A stretch of 63,989 bases of DNA, filler included, from an uncultured bacterium (GTDB lineage Bacteria > DAOPZR01), in the NCBI GenBank assembly GCA_964637655.1. It is 7 parts of 7 records of this genome, joined end to end, with 100 filler letters (N's around TTAATTAATTAA, not from the genome) between each part and the next. Parts side by side here need not be neighbours in the genome. Positions count along the whole stretch, not along the records: positions 39,625 to 49,149 come from CAZWUZ010000147.1; 6 more parts are not named here. One strand, 5' to 3'. Made by a program: the position numbers and the translations under genes. The notes under the pieces are model-generated. The model saw only the letters and a list, made by a program, of their open reading frames with translations, was not told the DNA's origin and ran no database searches. The first letter of the stretch is position 1. Each line of letters opens with the position of its first letter. Positions 39,625-49,149 of the stretch are shown one piece after another.

Positions 39625-39625
39625 A

Positions 39626-39793
39626 GTCCGGCTGGATGCCGCCGATATGGAAGCGCTGGTTTACCGCGGTGTCGCCCGTTTCAACCAGGGGCGGGTCAGC
39701 GAGGCATTGACTGATTGGCGCATGGTGCTGGAGGCCGACCCGGACCATGCGTACGCCCGCACACTGATGACGCAGCACGCACCGGAACGCTGA
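39626..39793 (+). CDS. TPR protein, C-terminal fragment
   Basis: Manual translation EALVYRGVARFNQGRVSEALTDWRMVLEADPDHAYA. Confidence 0.6.
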   Translation, partial: VRLDAADMEALVYRGVARFNQGRVSEALTDWRMVLEADPDHAYARTLMTQHAPER

Positions 39794-40498
39794 TCAGAAT
39801 TCGTAGTCGAAACCGATAGACGCGGTGCGCAGGGTCAGCCCCGCCCGGGTCTCGAAGTCGTACATCTTCTGCCGGCCGCGCACGTTGACTCTGAGATCCT
39901 CGGTGAGTTCACGCGCGGCGGAGAGCACGACGGTATGCACGCGCTGGTCCTCGTAGCGCTGCTGCACGTCGTCATCGTAATCGAGCGTCTTGTAGTAGTA
40001 ATTGAAGGAAAAATCCCAGACGCTGTTGCGCGGATGGTAGGTGAGCAGCGCGCCGCTTACCACGGAGAAGTTATCCTTCTGCGGCAGCAGCTGGTAGTCC
40101 TTCCACCAGGTGCGGTTTGACAGTTTCAGCAGCCATCCCTCAGCGACAGGAAAACTCAGCGACGTGTTGATGTGCTGCGCCATGTTGTCGTAGGTGTCGT
40201 AGGCGGTGAAGTCCTTGTTCTCGTGGACGTATTCGAGGGTGCTGGTGAGGTTGTCGGTGAAGGGGTGGGTGAACTTCAGCTTGAAGCGGTCGAAGAGAAA
40301 CTCGCTGTCGATATCCGCCTCCTGCGCTATGTCCTCCTGCTCCTCCGAGAGCATTTGCAGGCCGCGTTCCCAGTTGCCCGACAGGCGTGTGCGCGTGGCT
40401 GCATCAAGGGGTGGCGGAAGCAGGAACAGCAGGGTGAAGAAGAGGGCAATGCCGGTGCGCAGCAGCAGCGCGATATCAGGAGAGCAGCGGTGCATCAT
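39794..40498 (-). CDS. Putative outer-membrane beta-barrel protein
   Basis: Signal peptide, alternating aromatic beta-strands, C-terminal IGFDYEF (Bam signal-like); SD GGGAGG. Confidence 0.7.
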   Translation of the reverse strand: MMHRCSPDIALLLRTGIALFFTLLFLLPPPLDAATRTRLSGNWERGLQMLSEEQEDIAQEADIDSEFLFDRFKLKFTHPFTDNLTSTLEYVHENKDFTAYDTYDNMAQHINTSLSFPVAEGWLLKLSNRTWWKDYQLLPQKDNFSVVSGALLTYHPRNSVWDFSFNYYYKTLDYDDDVQQRYEDQRVHTVVLSAARELTEDLRVNVRGRQKMYDFETRAGLTLRTASIGFDYEF

Positions 40499-40510
40499 CA
40501 CACCTCCCGG

Positions 40511-40612
40511 TCAGGTGCGGGCGATAGTTTCGAGAAACTCCTGCCATGTGTTGACCTGGTAGATCTCGCGGATGAACTGCCAAACCAGTTCGTCGTGGTT
40601 CCTCAGTTCCAT
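40511..40612 (-). CDS. Small 33-aa protein
   Basis: MELRNHDELVWQFIREIYQVNTWQEFLETIART; SD GGGGAGGG; GC3-biased codons; below the ORF-track size cutoff. Confidence 0.5.
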   Translation of the reverse strand: MELRNHDELVWQFIREIYQVNTWQEFLETIART

Positions 40613-40790
40613 GACGCCCTCCCCGCAACCGAATTTGCGTCTACTGTTTTTATCGGCATACCGCGCGCCGAGTGTAAGCCACACTTCGCCGTACGGGATA
40701 CAAAATCAGCGCAACCAATGCAATGACAATACCATGCGTGGATTGCAACGGAATGGCGAAAACGCCGGTATACCCCTTCAGGAGGTGGCA

Positions 40791-41099
40791 ATGGGAACCA
40801 GTGCCGAGTATCGCTGCCGCAAGTGCGGGTATCGCGCCCATGTGTGCGGAGGCCATTCCTGTGGTTTTATCGCGGTGCTGCGCACGAAGTTCTGCCGCAC
40901 CTGCCGTGAACTGGTCGATGTGTCAGTCGGCAGTTTCGGCAAGGACGGCCCGACCGGCGACCCGCAGCTTGACGAGGATCTCAACCGCTGCCCGCGCTGC
41001 AAGGGCAAAAAGCTGCGCATCTGGAAAAGCGGCCAGCCCTGCCCCCGCTGCGGCGGCGCCATGCCTGCAGACCCGCACACCATCTGCCTGTGGGATTGA
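40791..41099 (+). CDS. Multi-CxxC zinc-ribbon protein
   Basis: CRKC, CRTC, CPRC, CPRC; SD AGGAGG. Confidence 0.75.
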   Translation: MGTSAEYRCRKCGYRAHVCGGHSCGFIAVLRTKFCRTCRELVDVSVGSFGKDGPTGDPQLDEDLNRCPRCKGKKLRIWKSGQPCPRCGGAMPADPHTICLWD

Positions 41100-41101
41100 T
41101 T

Positions 41102-41131
41102 TTGACAATCTGCCGATCTGACTGATACACT
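41102..41131 (+). promoter_or_regulatory. Promoter upstream of the nuclease/helicase locus
   Basis: TTGACA-N18-TACACT with extended TG. Confidence 0.55.
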
Positions 41132-41191
41132 GCCGGCGACGCTGTGCATGGGAGCTCACGTTGCCATGCGTCTGGAGGCAGGTCACGTCGC

Positions 41192-42814
41192 ATGATCTAT
41201 CCGGATCAGTTTCCTATCGACGAAAGAGAATTCGACGAAAATCCCGAACGATTGGTGTATGAAGCGCTGCATGGTATCGCTGATGATTACGATGTGTTCT
41301 ACAGCCAGCGTTTTACCGCTGCCCGTGCCGGGGAAAAAGAACATTACGAAGTCGATTTCATTATTATCCATCCGGCTAAAGGGTGCCTGCTCCTGGAAGT
41401 AAAAGGCGGACTGATTGAGTATGATCGCGCCGCAGGAACCTGGACGCAGAACGGCAGGAAAATGCAGCGTTCGCCGGTGGCGCAGGTGCTGGGGTACCGG
41501 AAAAGCCTCGCCACCCGCTACCCGTTGCTCAGCGCCAAACTGCCGATAGGTTGGGCGCTCTGCTTTCCGCAATGTGAACGCGATGAACATGCCGCGCTGC
41601 CGACTGAACTGACGCCCGAGACGGTGCTCGATGAACGCGACCTGCCGTGTCTGGAAAAACAGATTGTGAAGCTGTTTGCCGCTTTGCGCAGGAAACTGCC
41701 GAACTATCCCGGGCTGAGTCGTGATGAATACCGGCCTATCAGGGAAGAGTTGTTGCGCGGACTGGGGATGACGGTGCGGCTGGGAACGCGAATCGAGCGG
41801 GAACGCCCGCAGTGGTTTCGCCTGACTGCCCGTCAGTTCGAGGTGCTGCGTCTTTCACTCGACAGCGAACGCACCGTGGTGCGCGGGTGTGCGGGAAGCG
41901 GCAAGACGGTTATTGCGACGATGCTGGCGAAGGAATGCCTCAACCGCAACCGGCGGGTCCTTTTTCTCTGTTTCAACAAGCCGCTGGCGGAACAGATCGG
42001 CAGCGAATTTGCCGGCGCTGATACGCGGCGGCTGACCTGCGGCGCCTTTTTCACGTTTGCCCGCACAGCGATCAATGACGAAGCCTGGTGGGAGGCACAA
42101 AAACACGATACGGAGTTTTATGATCTGCAGGTTCCGGTCCGGCTCGAAGAGGTGAAAGTAAAAGCAGCGGATCGCTTCGATACGGTGATTATCGATGAAG
42201 GGCAGGATTTTCGCGCGGCCTGGTATGAAATGCTGGAAAGATGGCTGAAGCCGGAAGGACAGATGGTTGTTTTCCTTGATCCGCGTCAGGATCAGTTCCG
42301 TCACTTTACCAGGCTGCCGAAGGAACGGAGTTATCAGAAGCACACGCTGACCCATAATTGCCGCAACGGGCTGGCAATAGCTGAGTATCTCAGGCGCGAG
42401 ACAGGCGCCGAGTTCATGGTCTACGAGGACCCGCCGCAGGGTAAACTGCGCCTGCGCCAGTACCGGCGCCCCGCCGATCAGTTGAAGATGCTGGAAAACG
42501 ACATCGGGACGCTGCTCAAAGGGGATGCCCTCAAGCCGCACCAGATTGTTATTCTGATACAGTCGGACAAGCGTGAATCGGTGCTGGATGGAGTGAAAAA
42601 AATTGCCGGGTGCGAACTGACCAGCAGTTATCACCCGGCGGAATGCCGGCCGCAGCAGATCCGCTATGCGCAGATCAGCGTATTCAAGGGGCTTGAAGCA
42701 GATGTGGTCATTTTAACCGACACGCACTTGCTGTCGGCAACGGAGCGCGAACAGTGCCTGTATCTGGAGGCGAGCCGCGCCCAGCAGTTGCTGATCGTGT
42801 ATCGGCAGTCGTAA
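41192..42814 (+). CDS. NERD nuclease + SF1 (UvrD-like) helicase
   Basis: E...EVDFIIIHP..GCLLLEVKGG (PD-(D/E)xK), SPVAQ; Walker A GCAGSGKT; IIDEGQD; NCRN; FKGLEADVVIL; SRA. Confidence 0.9.
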   Translation: MIYPDQFPIDEREFDENPERLVYEALHGIADDYDVFYSQRFTAARAGEKEHYEVDFIIIHPAKGCLLLEVKGGLIEYDRAAGTWTQNGRKMQRSPVAQVLGYRKSLATRYPLLSAKLPIGWALCFPQCERDEHAALPTELTPETVLDERDLPCLEKQIVKLFAALRRKLPNYPGLSRDEYRPIREELLRGLGMTVRLGTRIERERPQWFRLTARQFEVLRLSLDSERTVVRGCAGSGKTVIATMLAKECLNRNRRVLFLCFNKPLAEQIGSEFAGADTRRLTCGAFFTFARTAINDEAWWEAQKHDTEFYDLQVPVRLEEVKVKAADRFDTVIIDEGQDFRAAWYEMLERWLKPEGQMVVFLDPRQDQFRHFTRLPKERSYQKHTLTHNCRNGLAIAEYLRRETGAEFMVYEDPPQGKLRLRQYRRPADQLKMLENDIGTLLKGDALKPHQIVILIQSDKRESVLDGVKKIAGCELTSSYHPAECRPQQIRYAQISVFKGLEADVVILTDTHLLSATEREQCLYLEASRAQQLLIVYRQS

Positions 42815-42917
42815 CACTAACCGCTTGCGCGGCAGCATGATATGCGGCGCTGCAACGCGACGCTGACAACCGGCGTATAGATCTGCAACAAACGCGGGCA
42901 GACACCATGAGGAGCGT

Positions 42918-43424
42918 ATGAACGAGAAACAGCAGGCACGGGAGATCATTGCGGAACTGGAAAAGGGAAATCTGTCGGTTGATTGCCCGTGCTGCGGCGA
43001 ACGGCTGCCGCTGCGCGATGCCGGGCTGTTTTATCTCAATGACTTCACCCCCGCAGGGGAGGAAATATATCGCCGCAAACTGGCGGAGATCAAAGAGCGG
43101 CGCAAGGAACTGCGGGCCATGCGCGGCAAGATCAGTATCAAGTCGGAAACGGGCGGCAAGGCGGTCAATCTCGGGTTTATTCTCGAACGTCTGGCGCCGG
43201 CGCTTAAAACCTTTTCTTTCGACCGCAACGATTGCCGCTCGCTCTTTGAACCGATCGACTATGTGATCTTCGAAGGACTGAGCAAGCTGGGCAAGGTGAC
43301 ACGCCTGATCTTCTCTGACATCAAGACGGGAAATGCGCGGCTCAATACCAACCAGAAGCAGATCAGGGAACTCGTCGGGCGCAAGAAACTCGACTGGGAC
43401 ACCTATCGCGCGGAGGTGCAGTAA
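42918..43424 (+). CDS. Holliday-junction-resolvase-like (Endonuc_Holl-type) nuclease A
   Basis: CPCC, coiled coil, G.I.ERLAP, DCRSLFEPIDYVIFEG...FSDIKTG.ARL..NQKQIR. Confidence 0.8.
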   Translation: MNEKQQAREIIAELEKGNLSVDCPCCGERLPLRDAGLFYLNDFTPAGEEIYRRKLAEIKERRKELRAMRGKISIKSETGGKAVNLGFILERLAPALKTFSFDRNDCRSLFEPIDYVIFEGLSKLGKVTRLIFSDIKTGNARLNTNQKQIRELVGRKKLDWDTYRAEVQ

Positions 43425-43939
43425 TGCTCTCGCGCATTGCGGCGTTCTTCAATCTGCAGCGGCGCATCTTCGGGGTTTGCCCGGAATGCGATGAAGTGTT
43501 CCGGTTGAGCGACTGCACGATCAATACGCGGGCAAAGTCGGGAAAGAACTGGCTCGACGCTATCGACGCGGAAGAAGCACGCCTCGGCCGGTTGGAAGAA
43601 AAAATCGAGGAACAGCGGGCGAAACTGAAAGAAGCGGCGGCGCGCAAAGGGCGTTTGGCGGCGCAAAAACAGATTCGGCGCATTGACCGTGTCTTCACCC
43701 CGCACCACCTCGAACCGGACGACGCCAAAGTGATTTTCCACCCCATCGATTTTGTCGTGTTTAACGGTCTCACGGACAAGGACAAACGTCCGATGAAGAA
43801 TATTGTGCTGCTGGACCGCCAGACCACCGACAAGGGACATCGTGCGCTGCAGAAGAGTATCGAACAGGCGGTGGAAAAGGGACGCTACGAGTGGCAGACC
43901 CTGCGGGTCGAACAGAACGGCACCATAGTTGCGGAATGA
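43424..43939 (+). CDS. Holliday-junction-resolvase-like protein B (degenerate active site)
   Basis: CPEC, coiled coil, DAKVIFHPIDFVVFNG...LLDRQT...LQKSIEQAVEKG; TAATG overlap with paralogue A. Confidence 0.75.
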   Translation: MLSRIAAFFNLQRRIFGVCPECDEVFRLSDCTINTRAKSGKNWLDAIDAEEARLGRLEEKIEEQRAKLKEAAARKGRLAAQKQIRRIDRVFTPHHLEPDDAKVIFHPIDFVVFNGLTDKDKRPMKNIVLLDRQTTDKGHRALQKSIEQAVEKGRYEWQTLRVEQNGTIVAE

Positions 43940-43948
43940 TTTGACATC

Positions 43949-45223
43949 ATGCCCATAGTGCTGCCGCTGCTCTCTGAATACGATACGTCAGGCAAGAACG
44001 AAGGCACGCTCGATCCGCTGGGGCTGTATGCCATCGCCGACGAACTGGCAACGCAATTGGTGCCGGCCGTGCGTGAGCGCATGGCGCGTGTCCGTTTTCT
44101 GACGGCCATGGCGGTCGGCGCCAAGGTGGTGGAGGGAGTTGCGGCCAATCCCCGCTTCCCGCAAACACCACCATTCATTGTCTGGGAATGGCTGGTTATC
44201 GAGGCGCTGGTGCGCACCTACGGGGACGATGTCTCGCTCAGCCGGATGCCGGGCAAAAACGTCACCCGTTCGGCACTGGAACGCTTCGGACATCTCGACA
44301 GTCGTACCTATCTCAAAACTCCGCGAGTGTTCGGCTTTTATGGTGTATACAAGCGGCTGGCTGAACACTGTGGCGTGCTGCTTTCCAATCTAGCCTGTCA
44401 CCCGCGGCATGGCGATGCGCTGGTGCATGTGTGGGCGAAGGATCGGGGCATAGGCGATTTGGCATCGCTGTTGAATACCTGGCGGCGTGGTGTAGAAAAG
44501 GCACTCGCAATGCAGCCACCCCGCACGGAAATCGGCTGGCGCATGGCGGATTGGCAGGAACTGGCCGAACATTTGCACCCCGGCAAAGCGCGTGCTGCGG
44601 AAAAACGGTATCTTGCAGGCCTGCTTTGCGGCGAGGAGGCGGCGCTCGGCGCCTTTGCCGATATGTGGAAACTGGCGGATGGATTGTCGCCATCGTCTTA
44701 TGATGAGCGCCGGTTTCACGAGAAAGTCATGAAACGGTATCCGCATTACGGGACATTGCTTGGGACGATACAGGCCTATGAGCACTTTTCGCGATGCCTG
44801 ACAGATGCTTTCGATATCATACGGGCTGAAGCAACGACGAATGAGGAGCGCGGATACCGTTTTACTCACGCCGGATCCGACAAGGAGATGCAGGCACTGG
44901 CAAAGGAAATTCCCGCGGCCTACCATGAAGCACTTGCCCGGTTTGGGGATGGGGCGCTTGTGGTGCGTTTTTCTGACAGATTTGCGCGGTTCGCCCAGAC
45001 ATATTCAGCCGCTGAATTGGCCCGGGTAGTGCATGCGCATCATGTAACAGTGCAGCGCAATAAAGATGAGGAAGGAAAGCTTCCGTGGTTTGATGTAAGC
45101 AGCGACGAACGGCTGATTATCAGGCGTCGTTATGAAGTGCCGCAGCGTCCGCAACGCTCGCACTGGTATGTGCACGGCTATCGTACCGGTCCGCTTGCCT
45201 CGTTTTACCGTGATTTACAATGA
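43949..45223 (+). CDS. Conserved hypothetical protein (DPLG motif, DUF6361-like)
   Basis: GTLDPLGLYAIADELATQLVPAV..R..RVRF, FGFYGVYKRL; operonic with the PLD and SNF2 genes. Confidence 0.65.
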   Translation: MPIVLPLLSEYDTSGKNEGTLDPLGLYAIADELATQLVPAVRERMARVRFLTAMAVGAKVVEGVAANPRFPQTPPFIVWEWLVIEALVRTYGDDVSLSRMPGKNVTRSALERFGHLDSRTYLKTPRVFGFYGVYKRLAEHCGVLLSNLACHPRHGDALVHVWAKDRGIGDLASLLNTWRRGVEKALAMQPPRTEIGWRMADWQELAEHLHPGKARAAEKRYLAGLLCGEEAALGAFADMWKLADGLSPSSYDERRFHEKVMKRYPHYGTLLGTIQAYEHFSRCLTDAFDIIRAEATTNEERGYRFTHAGSDKEMQALAKEIPAAYHEALARFGDGALVVRFSDRFARFAQTYSAAELARVVHAHHVTVQRNKDEEGKLPWFDVSSDERLIIRRRYEVPQRPQRSHWYVHGYRTGPLASFYRDLQ

Positions 45224-47310
45224 GCACACGGGGAACGCTGCTTGAACTCTGGCGGCCGCCGGCTACGGCAGGTGAACCGCTTGGCTGTCTGACGACCACC
45301 TATACCTTCGATCCGGCCTTTTTTGAAGAAGAGTGCCTTTCCCGTTTCCTCGAAGTGGACACCGTGCCCGGCAGAAGTAATCGACTGGCGTATGTTCTTG
45401 ACCGCGATACACGACTGGAAAAAACATATGCGGGGGTGCTGGCTGATATCGCGATGGCTGGCGTCGAGCATGCCTGGCGCTGGGACGTCCTGCCGGTACG
45501 CGTGCCGCGTGGCATCCAGCACGCCAAACTGACGCTGCTCGCCTGGCAGGGTGCGTTGCGGATTATTATCGCTTCGGCCAATTGCACACCGAGTGGCTAT
45601 CGCACGAATCAGGAAGTGTTTGGCTGTATCGACTGCACGCCGTTTGCCCATGAGGCAGCGGCATATACTGCCTGTCGCGAGTTTATCGACCGGCTTTGCA
45701 CCTGCGTACCTGACAGTGGTGAGGAACGCAGTCCGCTGGCGCGTGCACGGGCATTCCTCGCGCTGGTGGATGCTCGGGTGCGTGAGTGGACAGAGGTTGC
45801 CACACGCGGCAAGAACCTCGTGGTGCTGCCGGTATTTTCGGCGCCGGGAACCGGCACGAAGGAGGCGGCACAAACGCTTGCTGATTGCATTGCACATTGT
45901 CGGTCGGTTGGGCGTGCTCCACGGACAGCGTACATTGCCTCGCCATTTTTCAACGACCACGAGCATGACGAAACGGATGCGCCAACGGCAAAACTGATTG
46001 AATTGATGGATCAGAACCACGCTGAGGTAACGCTTTGCCTGCCCCGTGCCGGCGAAAACAGCGGAACCGTAACGAAAGTTGCGGCACCCAAAGCGGTTTA
46101 TACGACGCTGCTTGGCAAGGTGAACAAAAGCCCGATCTGCCTGTTGCCCGAACGTGATGAGGATGACAATACGCGTATTTGGCATGCCAAGATGCTGAGG
46201 TTTGCCGATCGTGACCGCTATGAGGCACATTATGTCGGGTCGGCTAATTGGACTTCCGCGGGGATGGGGATTGGCGCGCGGATCAATTTTGAAGCGGGGT
46301 TGCTCTATCTGTGCAAAAAACGAAAGTATGACCGGAATGCCGGCCAATTGGCACGCTTATGGTCGAGAATGTCGGAAGTCCCGGACCCTGCGACCATCAG
46401 GTGGATGGGAGCGCAGTCCATCACCGAGGAAATGCCGGGGGAACAGCAGGCAGTGCTGCCAGGCGGCTTTGTCAGCGCGGTGTATGCCGCAGGTGACAAC
46501 CCCGAACTCCGGCTGAGCTTTGCGCCCGAGGCGTTGCCGGCACAGTGGCAGATAAGCAGCGACCGGGCCGAAGCGGGAGTGTTGCTCGATAGCATACTGT
46601 ATGCACAGAGGGAAAATCAGGAAAATGTATGCCTGCCGTGGCGACTGTCCGATCCCCCGTGTTATCTGCTGGTTGCGTGGGAAAATCAGACTGCCTATTG
46701 GACGCTGAATATCGCTGATGATCGGGTATTGCCCGCGGCGCCGGAACTCGGGGAATTGAACGAAGACCAGTTGATCGCGTATCTGGCGGCAGTCGATCCG
46801 GGAGCGGTGCTGCGGGCTGCGCTGGCACGCGCGAGCAGCAGCGATGACGAAGAAATCGAAACGGTGGCGGCTATCGATCTCGATCCGCTGCGGCGGTACG
46901 ATTTGCAGGCGACCTTCCTGCATCGCGTGCGGCGCTGGGCGCGGCAATTCGCGCGTATTCGCGCACGGCTGGAAGAGCCGGTTGCGAGTGTGCGCATACT
47001 GGAAAGCAACCTGCGCGGCATAATCGGGATCAGGACGCTGGTGCGCAAACTGGCGGCCAATTGCACGGACCCGAACCACAACCGGGTAGAGAGCATACTG
47101 GTGCTGGCCGACTTTCTGCTCATGCTCACCATGGTGCACTATCGTGGCGGTGAAAGGGCGTTATCGCGGCGCTCGTTTACCACAGCCTACCGCACCTTTC
47201 TCGGCGAGGTGGCAGACGAAGCGGAGGCGGCAGTGCGCACCGTTAGCGCTGATCTCGATACGGAACTCGCACAATTCTGGCAGGGTGTGTTGCAGAGGTG
47301 CCGGGCATGA
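45220..47310 (+). CDS. Phospholipase D-family nuclease with two HxK motifs
   Basis: TTYTFD; HAKLTLL...IASANCT; IASPFF; HAKMLRF...VGSANWT...NFEAG; ATGA overlaps at both ends. Confidence 0.88.
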   Translation: MSTRGTLLELWRPPATAGEPLGCLTTTYTFDPAFFEEECLSRFLEVDTVPGRSNRLAYVLDRDTRLEKTYAGVLADIAMAGVEHAWRWDVLPVRVPRGIQHAKLTLLAWQGALRIIIASANCTPSGYRTNQEVFGCIDCTPFAHEAAAYTACREFIDRLCTCVPDSGEERSPLARARAFLALVDARVREWTEVATRGKNLVVLPVFSAPGTGTKEAAQTLADCIAHCRSVGRAPRTAYIASPFFNDHEHDETDAPTAKLIELMDQNHAEVTLCLPRAGENSGTVTKVAAPKAVYTTLLGKVNKSPICLLPERDEDDNTRIWHAKMLRFADRDRYEAHYVGSANWTSAGMGIGARINFEAGLLYLCKKRKYDRNAGQLARLWSRMSEVPDPATIRWMGAQSITEEMPGEQQAVLPGGFVSAVYAAGDNPELRLSFAPEALPAQWQISSDRAEAGVLLDSILYAQRENQENVCLPWRLSDPPCYLLVAWENQTAYWTLNIADDRVLPAAPELGELNEDQLIAYLAAVDPGAVLRAALARASSSDDEEIETVAAIDLDPLRRYDLQATFLHRVRRWARQFARIRARLEEPVASVRILESNLRGIIGIRTLVRKLAANCTDPNHNRVESILVLADFLLMLTMVHYRGGERALSRRSFTTAYRTFLGEVADEAEAAVRTVSADLDTELAQFWQGVLQRCRA

Positions 47311-49149
47311 ACTACACGATACCGCGGGAATTGACGCTGGGGCGGCATGACAATGTGCATATTCCCTACGCTGATCAGCAGCGGCAGCGGGTGGAAGTGG
47401 CAGAAGTGCTGCGTCGTTTCGCGGATAGGCCGGGCATTATCCTTGCAGATGAGGTCGGGATGGGAAAAACCTTTGTCGCGCTGGCTGTCGGCTATGCGCT
47501 GGCCAGCAGCCGGCCGAGCGGCCCGGTGGTGGTGATGGTGCCACCCAACCTGCTCGACAAATGGAAGAAGGACCTCGAGCGGTTCTGCAAACTCTATCTC
47601 GACAAAGTATTGCCGCTGGAACCACAGGAAGAGGCGCCGAATTCATGGGACGGCACGGTATTGCGTTTTGGCTGCGCAGAAACCGCATCACAGTTCTTTA
47701 AATATTTGGACGATCCCCCGCGCCGCCGCTGTCGCTTCATCTTTCTGAATGCGCGGGCGATGACCCGCGGTCTGGATGACAAATTTGTCAAATTGGCGCT
47801 GATCCGCAGGGCGTTGCTCAGCGCCGGCAAGCGACGGCGAATTGCGTCAGTACGCAGGACGATACATCGTTTTCTCGGAGACATTCTGGTGCTCAAAGGG
47901 CACCAAAATCGCAGCCATAAGGGTGAAGAACTCTGGCAGGAATTGCTTGGCGCGCCGCCGCAAAACTGGCAGGCGATCTACAACAGTTTCGTCAAGCGGG
48001 AAGCAGACCGGATGACGGATGACCCGGTACCCAGGGCTGTGCTGAAAGCGCTGGAACAGGTGCGGGTGAGTCGCCTTGCTGATGCACTGGAAAAGGTCCC
48101 GGTCAAGGCCCGTGGCGGTACGGATCGTTTGCAGGAACGGCTGACAGATGTGCGCCGAACGCTGAATGAAGAATTGCGTGAGTTGTGGCGGGAAATTACG
48201 GCTACGGCTCGCTGGCGCTCGCCCCTGCTGATATTTGATGAAGCGCACCATCTGAAGAATCCTGATACCTGCCTTGCCCGTCAGTTTCGTCAGCATGAGG
48301 AAGAAGAAAAGGTGAAGCCGGGCGATGGGACGATGGCGCACCGGTATGAGCGCATGCTCTTCCTGACCGCGACGCCGTTCCAGCTTGCGCATCACGAACT
48401 GGTTGAGGTGTTGCGCCGGTTTACGCATGTGCATACGGAGCGCGGAAGTACAGAACGAAGTGTGTGGCAGGATGAACTGACGCGCCTGGAACGGGCGCTG
48501 AATGAAGCGCAGCGCAATAAGATCCGCTTTTACCGGCTGTGGTCGACAATGCGAACGGAGGATCTGGGGACAGCACAGGATGTCGAGCAGTGGTGGGCGC
48601 AGCAGCAGGCGCTCCCGCGCGAACAGCGTGCGGCGCGAGCGGACGAAATTTGCAGCGTGATCAATCAGTGCGCGGAGCAGGGAAAAGAGGCGGAACGCCT
48701 GCTGCGTCTCTGGCTTATCCGGCACAACAAGCAGGAAACCTGGCCGGGGACAGATGTCGCCAGACGCCGGCGTTTTGCCGGGCAGGCAATGCTGCTGCCT
48801 GCGGCAAGCGGTGGGTTGCAGGTGCCTGCCAGCCAGATGCTGCCGTTCTTTCTGGCCGCGCGCAGCACGGCTGACCCATCGGCGGAACTGCTCAGTGAGG
48901 CACTTTGCTCGTCGTATGAGGCCTTCCGGAAAACCCGGGCGGACAATCGGGCGCATAAAGATGAATGTATGGACGTAGCATGCCCTGCGCGGCCGGATGC
49001 GCCCTGGGTGTTGGGAGAATTCGACCGGGTTATCGCCAGGCGGGAAGGTGCGCTGCATCCCAAAATGGCGGCAACGGTGCAGCGTGCTGCTGACCTGTGG
49101 GAACAGGGTGAAAAGGTGCTCATCTTTGCCTTTTACCGGCATACCTGCC
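47307..49149 (+). CDS. SNF2-family SF2 helicase/ATPase (3' truncated)
   Basis: GIILADEVGMGKT, VMVPPNL..KW, LIFDEAHHLKN, LFLTATPFQ, HPKM...GEKVLIF. Confidence 0.92.

Follow-up and report, generated by a model that had tools for sequence, protein, structure and literature searches.

A probable defence island of three stacked nuclease and helicase cassettes in an uncultured bacterium

Do six consecutive nuclease and helicase genes that share a strand and lie almost end to end make up one anti-phage system, or do they belong to several systems that have become neighbours? The question is raised by a window of 63,989 nucleotides (nt; the whole stretch of DNA that was analysed, seven joined parts) from assembly GCA_964637655.1 of an uncultured bacterium (lineage DAOPZR01), in which the contig CAZWUZ010000147.1 (C147, window positions 39625-49149, 9525 bases) is filled by a six-gene locus that the initial annotation had put forward as a single undescribed defence system. 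Open reading frame (ORF) calls recovered the six same-strand genes that it had described, coordinates and motifs included:

41192-42814, + strand: NERD-SF1 helicase, 540 amino acids (aa) when read from its ATG, with a further open start, GTG, at 41144
42918-43424, + strand: A, a PF10107 nuclease of 168 aa
43424-43939, + strand: B, a PF10107 paralogue of 171 aa
43949-45223, + strand: DPLG-motif protein of 424 aa
45220-47310, + strand: PLD nuclease of 696 aa
47307-49149, + strand: SNF2-type SF2 ATPase, cut by the contig end, 614 aa seen

The tight junctions are likewise present on the sequence: 103 nt separate the NERD helicase from A, A and B meet in TAATG, 9 nt lie between B and the DPLG gene, and both the DPLG/PLD and the PLD/SNF2 borders are ATGA overlaps. 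Pfam returned the NERD, SF1-type helicase, PLDc_2 and SNF2-rel_dom domains, and the two resolvase-like paralogues both pass the cut-off of PF10107 (Endonuc_Holl, 23.8 bits), A with 75.1 and B with 42.5 bits.

We consider it likely that the locus is a defence island acquired horizontally, with three independent cassettes (the NERD-SF1 helicase, the A/B pair and the DPLG-PLD-SNF2 trio) stacked head to tail, rather than one six-gene system. A 44-sequence DPLG alignment (681 relatives) retrieved 105 loci from one-genome-per-species data, the best 80 of which were kept as trio loci (a search with the PLD protein as a single sequence had found no loci), and neither A nor B was detected in any of these 80 by tblastn or by hidden Markov models (HMMs) at E <= 1, 71 of the loci having at least 1.1 kb upstream. 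The NERD helicase was represented among them by one weak match (28% identity, L049). In the other directions, a search of 251 genomes from a single phylum yielded 13 relatives of the NERD helicase, which had neither A, B, DPLG nor PLD within 1.5-kb flanks, and the DPLG trio subfamily of the window occurred in none of the 80 loci assembled for the A/B pair. These counts make it very improbable that the six genes form one defence system, with the NERD helicase and the resolvase pair processing branched phage DNA for the PLD-SNF2 core, even though the genes share a strand, short gaps, a low GC content and one well-placed promoter-like site; the initial grouping of all six, the NERD helicase included, is thus not upheld. 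The last five genes had been noted as tightly coupled, but unrelated genes often lie just as close to the start of the trio: a same-strand ORF of at least 150 aa ends no more than 60 nt before the first trio gene in 24 of 72 loci, and these ORFs, which were called mechanically and may in some cases be spurious, fall into about 19 families.

Across its relatives, the trio keeps its composition. In 73 of the 80 loci the PLD gene lies downstream of DPLG, 55 of them with an overlap that reads ATGA or GTGA, and the complete three-ORF trio is present in 59. The 21 incomplete loci comprise 17 in which the sequence runs out within 3 kb and 4 whose ORFs are truncated or frameshifted. The hosts include Planctomycetota, Acidobacteriota, Verrucomicrobiota, Pseudomonadota, Actinomycetota, Bacteroidota and others, and no trio relatives were found in viral contigs. 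Apart from the trio genes themselves, no neighbour family exceeds 11 of the 80 loci; those that recur upstream are DrmMI / type IIG proteins (DISARM/type IIG methylase-nucleases), DruE (Druantia-like), BrxHI (BREX-like) and UvrD-like helicases, and no conserved gene follows the trio among the 80 relatives. With such varied upstream families, and with neither A nor B in any of the 80 loci, the trio emerges as an autonomous cassette that inserts behind whichever genes are already there.

The three trio proteins carry the motifs of a nuclease-motor complex and one protein without a Pfam family. In the PLD nuclease, two HxK motifs without the Asp (H101-K103 in HAKLTLLA and H322-K324 in HAKMLRFA) are each followed by (G/A)SAN, and H101, K103, S119, N121, H322, K324, G340 and S341 are invariant in 60 of 60 aligned relatives. 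The SNF2 ATPase contains LADEVGMGKT, DEAH and LTATPFQ; as first described, the contig ends inside its gene, and comparison with relatives of mostly 910-1000 aa (about 960 aa) indicates that some 345 aa are missing, a C-terminal part found nowhere else in the assembly by tblastn with the corresponding parts of two relatives. The DPLG protein, which has no Pfam family, gave a confident and mostly helical model (predicted local distance difference test, pLDDT, 94.3; predicted template modelling score, pTM, 0.91) that had no Foldseek match and a best Z of 6.0 in a wide fold search. Winged-helix proteins (PadR/MarR, PaqCI at Z 5.5, BrxA at Z 4.5) recur on its residues ~46-200 at background level, so that a DNA-reading winged helix in DPLG is a lead only. 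At one locus (L014:1876-6870), the trio PLD and SNF2 genes read as a single ORF of 1664 aa, either a natural fusion or an assembly error.

To place the trio, we used as references two true PDC-M27 loci (NZ_CP019242.1 and NZ_AP027051.1; L162 and L163), PDC-M27 being a PADLOC-DB v2 candidate, together with four DUF6361 loci laid out as in Azaca (ZacA DUF6361, ZacB PLD, ZacC SF2 helicase), in three of which the first protein was confirmed as ZacA. The initial annotation had likened the trio to Azaca-type systems with a DUF6361 protein; the same three-part layout and a remote homology stand, but the first protein is not DUF6361, an identity ruled out by the lack of a PF19888 match in any of 112 DPLG family members. 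The source genome has no DUF6361 match either, and in another phylum DUF6361 occurred in 4 of 301 genomes, always with the A-B-C layout; the ZacA family was found in 0 of 5 and 0 of 301 genomes in searches run without a positive control. On the window trio, PADLOC gave weak matches, in order, to PDC-M27A, B and C, with ZacB the best match for PLD (E 2.7e-8). A profile of the 112 DPLG sequences aligned over its full length with two true PDC-M27A proteins (probability 97-99%, 407-423 columns), against probabilities of 0-0.2% for three unrelated controls; over all hhalign comparisons with PDC-M27A the range was 90-99% and 401-423 columns. Single DPLG members were recognised by the PDC-M27A HMM in 28 of 112 cases and, weakly, by the ZacA HMM in 13, the best ZacA value being 5e-5 as compared to 1e-89 to 1e-132 for true ZacA. 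The PLD profile matches both ZacB and PDC-M27B and shows little preference between them (probability 97-99%), while the SNF2 helicase is nearer to PDC-M27C (relatives 120-140 bits), followed by DrmD/ZacC; its ZacC score is 74-87 bits in five full-length relatives versus 1127 for true ZacC. In the ESM Atlas, DPLG falls into unnamed clusters, the nearest named one being DUF6361 at 0.84, again a lead only.

DPLG corresponds to ZacA in position and is likely to be remotely homologous to it, and the catalytic residues required by the Azaca scheme are invariant in the trio branch. The initial annotation had recognised no named system in the architecture, and no full match to one emerged: PDC-M27 models are covered by partial, low-scoring HMM matches rather than over most of their length, PADLOC models would not call the trio PDC-M27, and the DPLG protein does not pass as ZacA. 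As the scores lie 10- to 50-fold below those of true members, the trio is, as judged from sequence models, a separate and unnamed branch of the Azaca / PDC-M27 superfamily and a member of neither. No paper using the term PDC-M27 was found, and the main text of Payne et al. (supplements aside) does not contain it.

The second module, the A/B pair, combines one apparently active with one apparently dead nuclease. An A alignment (736 relatives) gave 264 metagenome loci, of which the best 80 were retained; 79 A and 61 B sequences were compared. B follows A in 76 of the 80, the other four ending 0-74 bases past A, and in viral loci with a B-type gene A lies upstream in 7 of 7. All 79 A sequences keep E90, D114 and K136, and every one of them has D or E at position 134 (E90-D114-D134/I/K136 here). 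In B, D109 and D131 are invariant in the 61 sequences, the helix-1 Glu is missing, and [DE][IV]K[TS]G is found in none of them. Of the two resolvase-like proteins described initially, B lacks the catalytic lysine, which leaves a single intact resolvase-like site. A single Cys knuckle is present in A as well as in B; it reads CxxC in all 79 A sequences (C23 and C26 here) and in 42 of 61 B sequences (C19 and C22 here), the rest of which mostly read CxxS, and in both proteins a long charged helix (coiled coil) follows the knuckle. Neither protein has a membrane anchor: no N-terminal transmembrane helix was found, the peak 19-residue hydropathy in the first 60 aa being at most 0.99 in A and 1.17 in B versus 1.5-3.7 in 33 single-gene relatives. 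These 33 relatives, from 33 of 41 viral loci, are PF10107 genes that all have an N-terminal transmembrane helix and never CxxC.

In a quick maximum-likelihood tree of 69 rows (16 hand-picked cellular pairs, the window pair and all distinct viral rows), A and B each fall on one side of a branch, with support of 97 and 98 and mirrored sub-branches, and over 60 pairs the pairwise distances of A and B correlate at 0.87, a value that kinship alone can produce. Taken together, pairing, asymmetric active site, tree and co-divergence suggest an ancient co-inherited pair of one active and one dead subunit, and, since a zinc site takes more than the single Cys pair that each chain offers, a shared zinc site and a heterodimer are suggested as well. 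Sequence comparison thus makes an active-plus-pseudo nuclease heterodimer, which would travel by way of defence islands and some phages, the most likely description of A and B. In this arrangement, two coiled coils and one zinc site, to which each subunit would contribute one Cys pair, would hold the heterodimer together; A would be catalytic, and B a dead partner that may bind or position nucleic acid or restrain A. Direct binding of A to B, the zinc site, the substrate and a role in defence are all predictions of this scheme. The B monomer model was poor (pLDDT 58), and a fold search from it was uninformative; no solved relative of A was found by sequence, and the ESM Atlas places B in PF10107 clusters. 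A close relative of the pair (proteins P0271 and P0391) shows 86% and 85% identity, the longest listed contig being 17,943 bases for each protein. No description of a tandem A/B pair was found in the literature (subscription papers and bioRxiv supplements lay outside reach), and the descriptions of the PF10107 family found there were computational only.

What the pair does is best approached through its surroundings. In the most far-reaching reading, to which we give less than even odds, A and B would form an undescribed soluble heterodimer of bacteria, archaea and phages that follows an XPF-ERCC1-like logic, serves defence or inter-phage conflict, probably by acting on branched replication intermediates, and is sometimes joined to Azaca-like cores. 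In 29 longer pair loci, the neighbours comprise, in changing combinations, Druantia-like genes, type II/III restriction-modification (RM), Sir2-HerA, AbiU-like, OLD, HEC-06, PDC singles and WYL genes. A PADLOC match at E <= 1e-20 lay near the pair in 18 of the 29, a count obtained without a random-locus control and from hand-picked proteins (86 of 127 long neighbour ORFs) and the first of several points that weigh against the three-cassette interpretation. Among the 47 pair loci in which one flank reaches 1.5 kb or more, two adjoin different, very distant Azaca-like trios, in L107 at 46 nt and in the same order as in the window, and in L113 at 218 nt with the trio first. Six viral loci (L174-L179) hold the pair among PolB, methylase, pyrimidine-dimer glycosylase and dUTPase genes, and, because the viral pair sits among such DNA-metabolism genes, a replication or repair role fits as well as defence. 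On the side of the trio, the profile-profile homology between DPLG and ZacA is weak (47 N-terminal columns, probability 10-11%), and, as the contig is cut in SNF2, a fourth gene or a methylase may lie downstream here.

Several features of individual pair loci may be recorded alongside. The L107 trio (L107:9063-14597) has a 478-aa first protein, DALG instead of DPLG and a short helicase of 703 aa, while that of L113 (L113:782-7755) is nearer to PDC-M27 and has a 1250-aa helicase. A WYL-domain regulator and a tetratricopeptide repeat (TPR) protein lie upstream of the pair in five loci (L093, L100, L112, L127 and L136). L174-L179 are related phage-like contigs in which the pair region includes a family-B DNA polymerase, several DNA methylases and MvaI/BcnI- or HinP1I-family endonucleases, L174 having in addition QueD/FolE-like and glycosyltransferase genes of a DNA-modification pathway.

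If the pair were an optional accessory nuclease of Azaca-like trios, recruited several times and widening their phage range, then the three adjacencies to three trio subfamilies (window, L107 and L113), of which two share gene order and close spacing, would be expected. We regard this as distinctly improbable, given that only the two informative pair loci named above show it and that none of the 80 trio loci does so in the reverse direction; Sir2-HerA, type III RM, Druantia-like, AbiU-like and HEC-06 genes recur beside the pair as often, so that pair-trio adjacency is no commoner than adjacency to other systems and, with the window, amounts to three independent events. A mobile DNA-processing enzyme, namely a structure-specific nuclease of recombination, repair or host-DNA breakdown, used by phages and drifting into islands, is a somewhat doubtful but serious candidate: the pair lies near PolB and other DNA-metabolism genes in the viral loci L174, L175 and L177, single-gene PF10107 relatives make up most of the viral loci (33 of 41), and the family takes its name from Holliday-junction resolvases. 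However, in cellular contigs varying sets of restriction-modification, Sir2-HerA, Druantia-like, OLD, toxin-antitoxin and WYL genes surround the pair, the same viral regions carry restriction-endonuclease-family and Que genes and are therefore conflict hot-spots too, and the pair is rare and patchy, being absent from the 301 and 201 genomes of two phyla that were searched with a positive control.

The small size and coupling of the two genes, one active and one dead, and their frequent position among toxin-antitoxin pairs would also suit a toxin-antitoxin-like arrangement in which B inhibits a toxic nuclease A until phage infection frees A and causes abortive infection. This seems unlikely to us, because the nuclease-fold half of B is strongly conserved with two invariant Asp residues, suggesting more than masking, and because the active gene comes first.

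The first module, the NERD-SF1 helicase, behaves as a single-gene nuclease-helicase unit. It has EVD..LEVK in its NERD domain (Pfam score 41 bits) and GCAGSGKT and IIDEGQD as helicase motifs, and it matches the PADLOC model RTasNERD-Hel over its full length (E 1.4e-59, model positions 14-512 of 519). This family sits beside 7 of 17 UG34 reverse transcriptases (PMC9226505); no reverse transcriptase was found among the ORFs of the contig.

How did the three cassettes come to lie on this contig? The source assembly (3.99 Mb, 485 contigs) has a GC content of 0.655, as compared to 0.586 for the contig, and the GC content at third codon positions (GC3) is 0.61-0.72 in the locus genes versus 0.78-0.92 in five flanking housekeeping ORFs, which confirms the weaker GC bias noted at the outset. 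Together with the varied defence genes that adjoin relatives of the trio and the pair, this supports the defence-island character. Among 60 comparison genomes, one (G001) belongs to the same family and the other 59 are related at domain level only; G001 matches only the left ~1 kb of the contig (72-74% DNA identity) and shows no DNA match to the right of ~40660. On account of this shared left part the contig belongs to the host lineage, and the remainder to its right is an acquired stretch of lower GC. The DPLG family was not found in any of the 60 genomes, G001 included. An empty insertion site is not definable from G001, where the shared left genes adjoin cheY; in the source genome cheY precedes rpsB on another contig. 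The remaining features of the contig are these:

left 1 kb of the contig, - strand: 235-aa ORF, matched in G001
40791-41099, + strand: Cys-rich, zinc-ribbon-like ORF of 102 aa, a seventh same-strand ORF at the left edge of the low-GC island
41102-41131, + strand: match to a sigma-70-like promoter consensus, TTGACA-18-TG-TACACT, 10/12

As far as tested, the Cys-rich ORF stands outside all three modules: its DZR match is weak and below the Pfam cut-off, tblastn found it in none of the 80 trio loci and none of the 80 pair loci, and G001 has no DNA match to it. The single promoter read initially is present as a consensus site, but the region holds four promoter-like sites versus 3.5 +/- 2.2 in shuffles, so that the site at 41102-41131 is supported by its position alone. 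A TTGACA hexamer stands directly after the stop codons of both the Cys-rich ORF (41094-41113) and gene B (43934-43951), in similar short context; coincidence, a second promoter start and a scar left by cassette insertion are all conceivable. Upstream of the 235-aa gene, a short unannotated and Cys-free ORF of ~45-50 aa (40514-40660, - strand), which contains HDELVWQFIREIYQV, is conserved in G001. A scan of the contig for Rfam families, tRNAs and convincing repeats found none. Elsewhere in the same genome, outside the window, a dispersed, partly palindromic repeat of ~30 bases (G000:C13 near 25700 and others) has 61 matches of at least 26 bases on 42 contigs, is often locally clustered and resembles repetitive extragenic palindromic (REP) elements or a small mobile repeat. 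Among the matches listed, sequencing-run contigs at >=99% identity bridge NERD-A, A-B and PLD-SNF2, the runs being possibly the source data, and none of those listed bridges B-DPLG or DPLG-PLD.

Beyond this locus, the analysis shows that genes packed closely in a defence island need not belong to one system. If correctly placed, the trio would add to the Azaca superfamily a branch that comprises ~900 clusters of proteins (at 50% identity) and escapes the Pfam and PADLOC models; Azaca being among the few nucleases without a methylase for which a preference for modified phage DNA has been reported, further branches may recognise modifications of other kinds. To us the asymmetric A/B nuclease pair, which appears unstudied, is the most interesting part of the island, a very small module of two genes that carries its own prediction, a dead subunit and a shared metal site.

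Each module can be set against a known counterpart. The NERD-SF1 helicase shares the N-terminal NERD and C-terminal helicase domains of RTasNERD-Hel, which has a UG34 reverse transcriptase as partner in some loci, whereas the contig has none and the relatives searched are solitary; Nhi-like single-gene nuclease-helicases match it in the Walker A region only. COG4741 is described as a single gene with an N-terminal transmembrane helix (PMC1189080; PMC3424549) and an E-(V/I)D-(E/D)(V/I)K core (PMC1189080). A keeps this core, and both A and B pass the Pfam cut-off of the family, but they are soluble, Cys-knuckled and a fixed pair with one degenerate member. An active PD-(D/E)xK-type subunit paired with a dead paralogue is also the principle of XPF-ERCC1 and Mus81-Eme1, eukaryotic ERCC4-family repair enzymes with helix-hairpin-helix (HhH) domains; we see in them a likeness to A and B in logic only and claim no homology.

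With PDC-M27, the trio has in common three genes of similar size in the same order and a PLD protein with two HxK motifs, and PDC-M27A shares with DPLG the D-P-L-G start and the C-terminal motifs H..Q/M..G..PW and W/Y..Y. By contrast, the scores of trio and true members are far apart, at 12 versus 570-605 bits for PDC-M27A, 21 versus 729-805 for PDC-M27B and, for PDC-M27C, 55 (the cut SNF2 copy) to 140 (relatives) versus 1200-1290. With Azaca, the trio shares the layout, the lack of a methylase and the two-HxK PLD, and ZacA has with DPLG an N-terminal D-[EP]-LG...AD.L.P...R.R motif in common as well as an extreme C-terminus that is similar by eye; the trio helicase differs in its length (~960 versus ~1020-1130 aa) and resembles ZacC at the motor motifs only. 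According to the Azaca preprint (bioRxiv 10.1101/2025.07.10.664194), the system protects against T-even phages, the ABC complex cuts T4 DNA in an ATPase-dependent manner, and DNA cutting by BmAzaca needs ZacA, ZacB, ZacC, the PLD nuclease site and Walker A; BmAzaca prefers phage T4 DNA, with glucosyl-hydroxymethylcytosine suggested by the authors as a possible cue. By analogy, the trio may work like Azaca: its proteins would form a three-subunit complex with anti-phage activity, as in BmAzaca. The ATPase would move along the invading double-stranded DNA or remodel it and thereby permit cleavage by the two-lobed PLD domain, while DPLG would serve as a scaffold and perhaps as a sensor of DNA or of modified bases. 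Because there is no methyltransferase, such a complex would recognise something foreign, for example a base modification, rather than spare a host-protected sequence.

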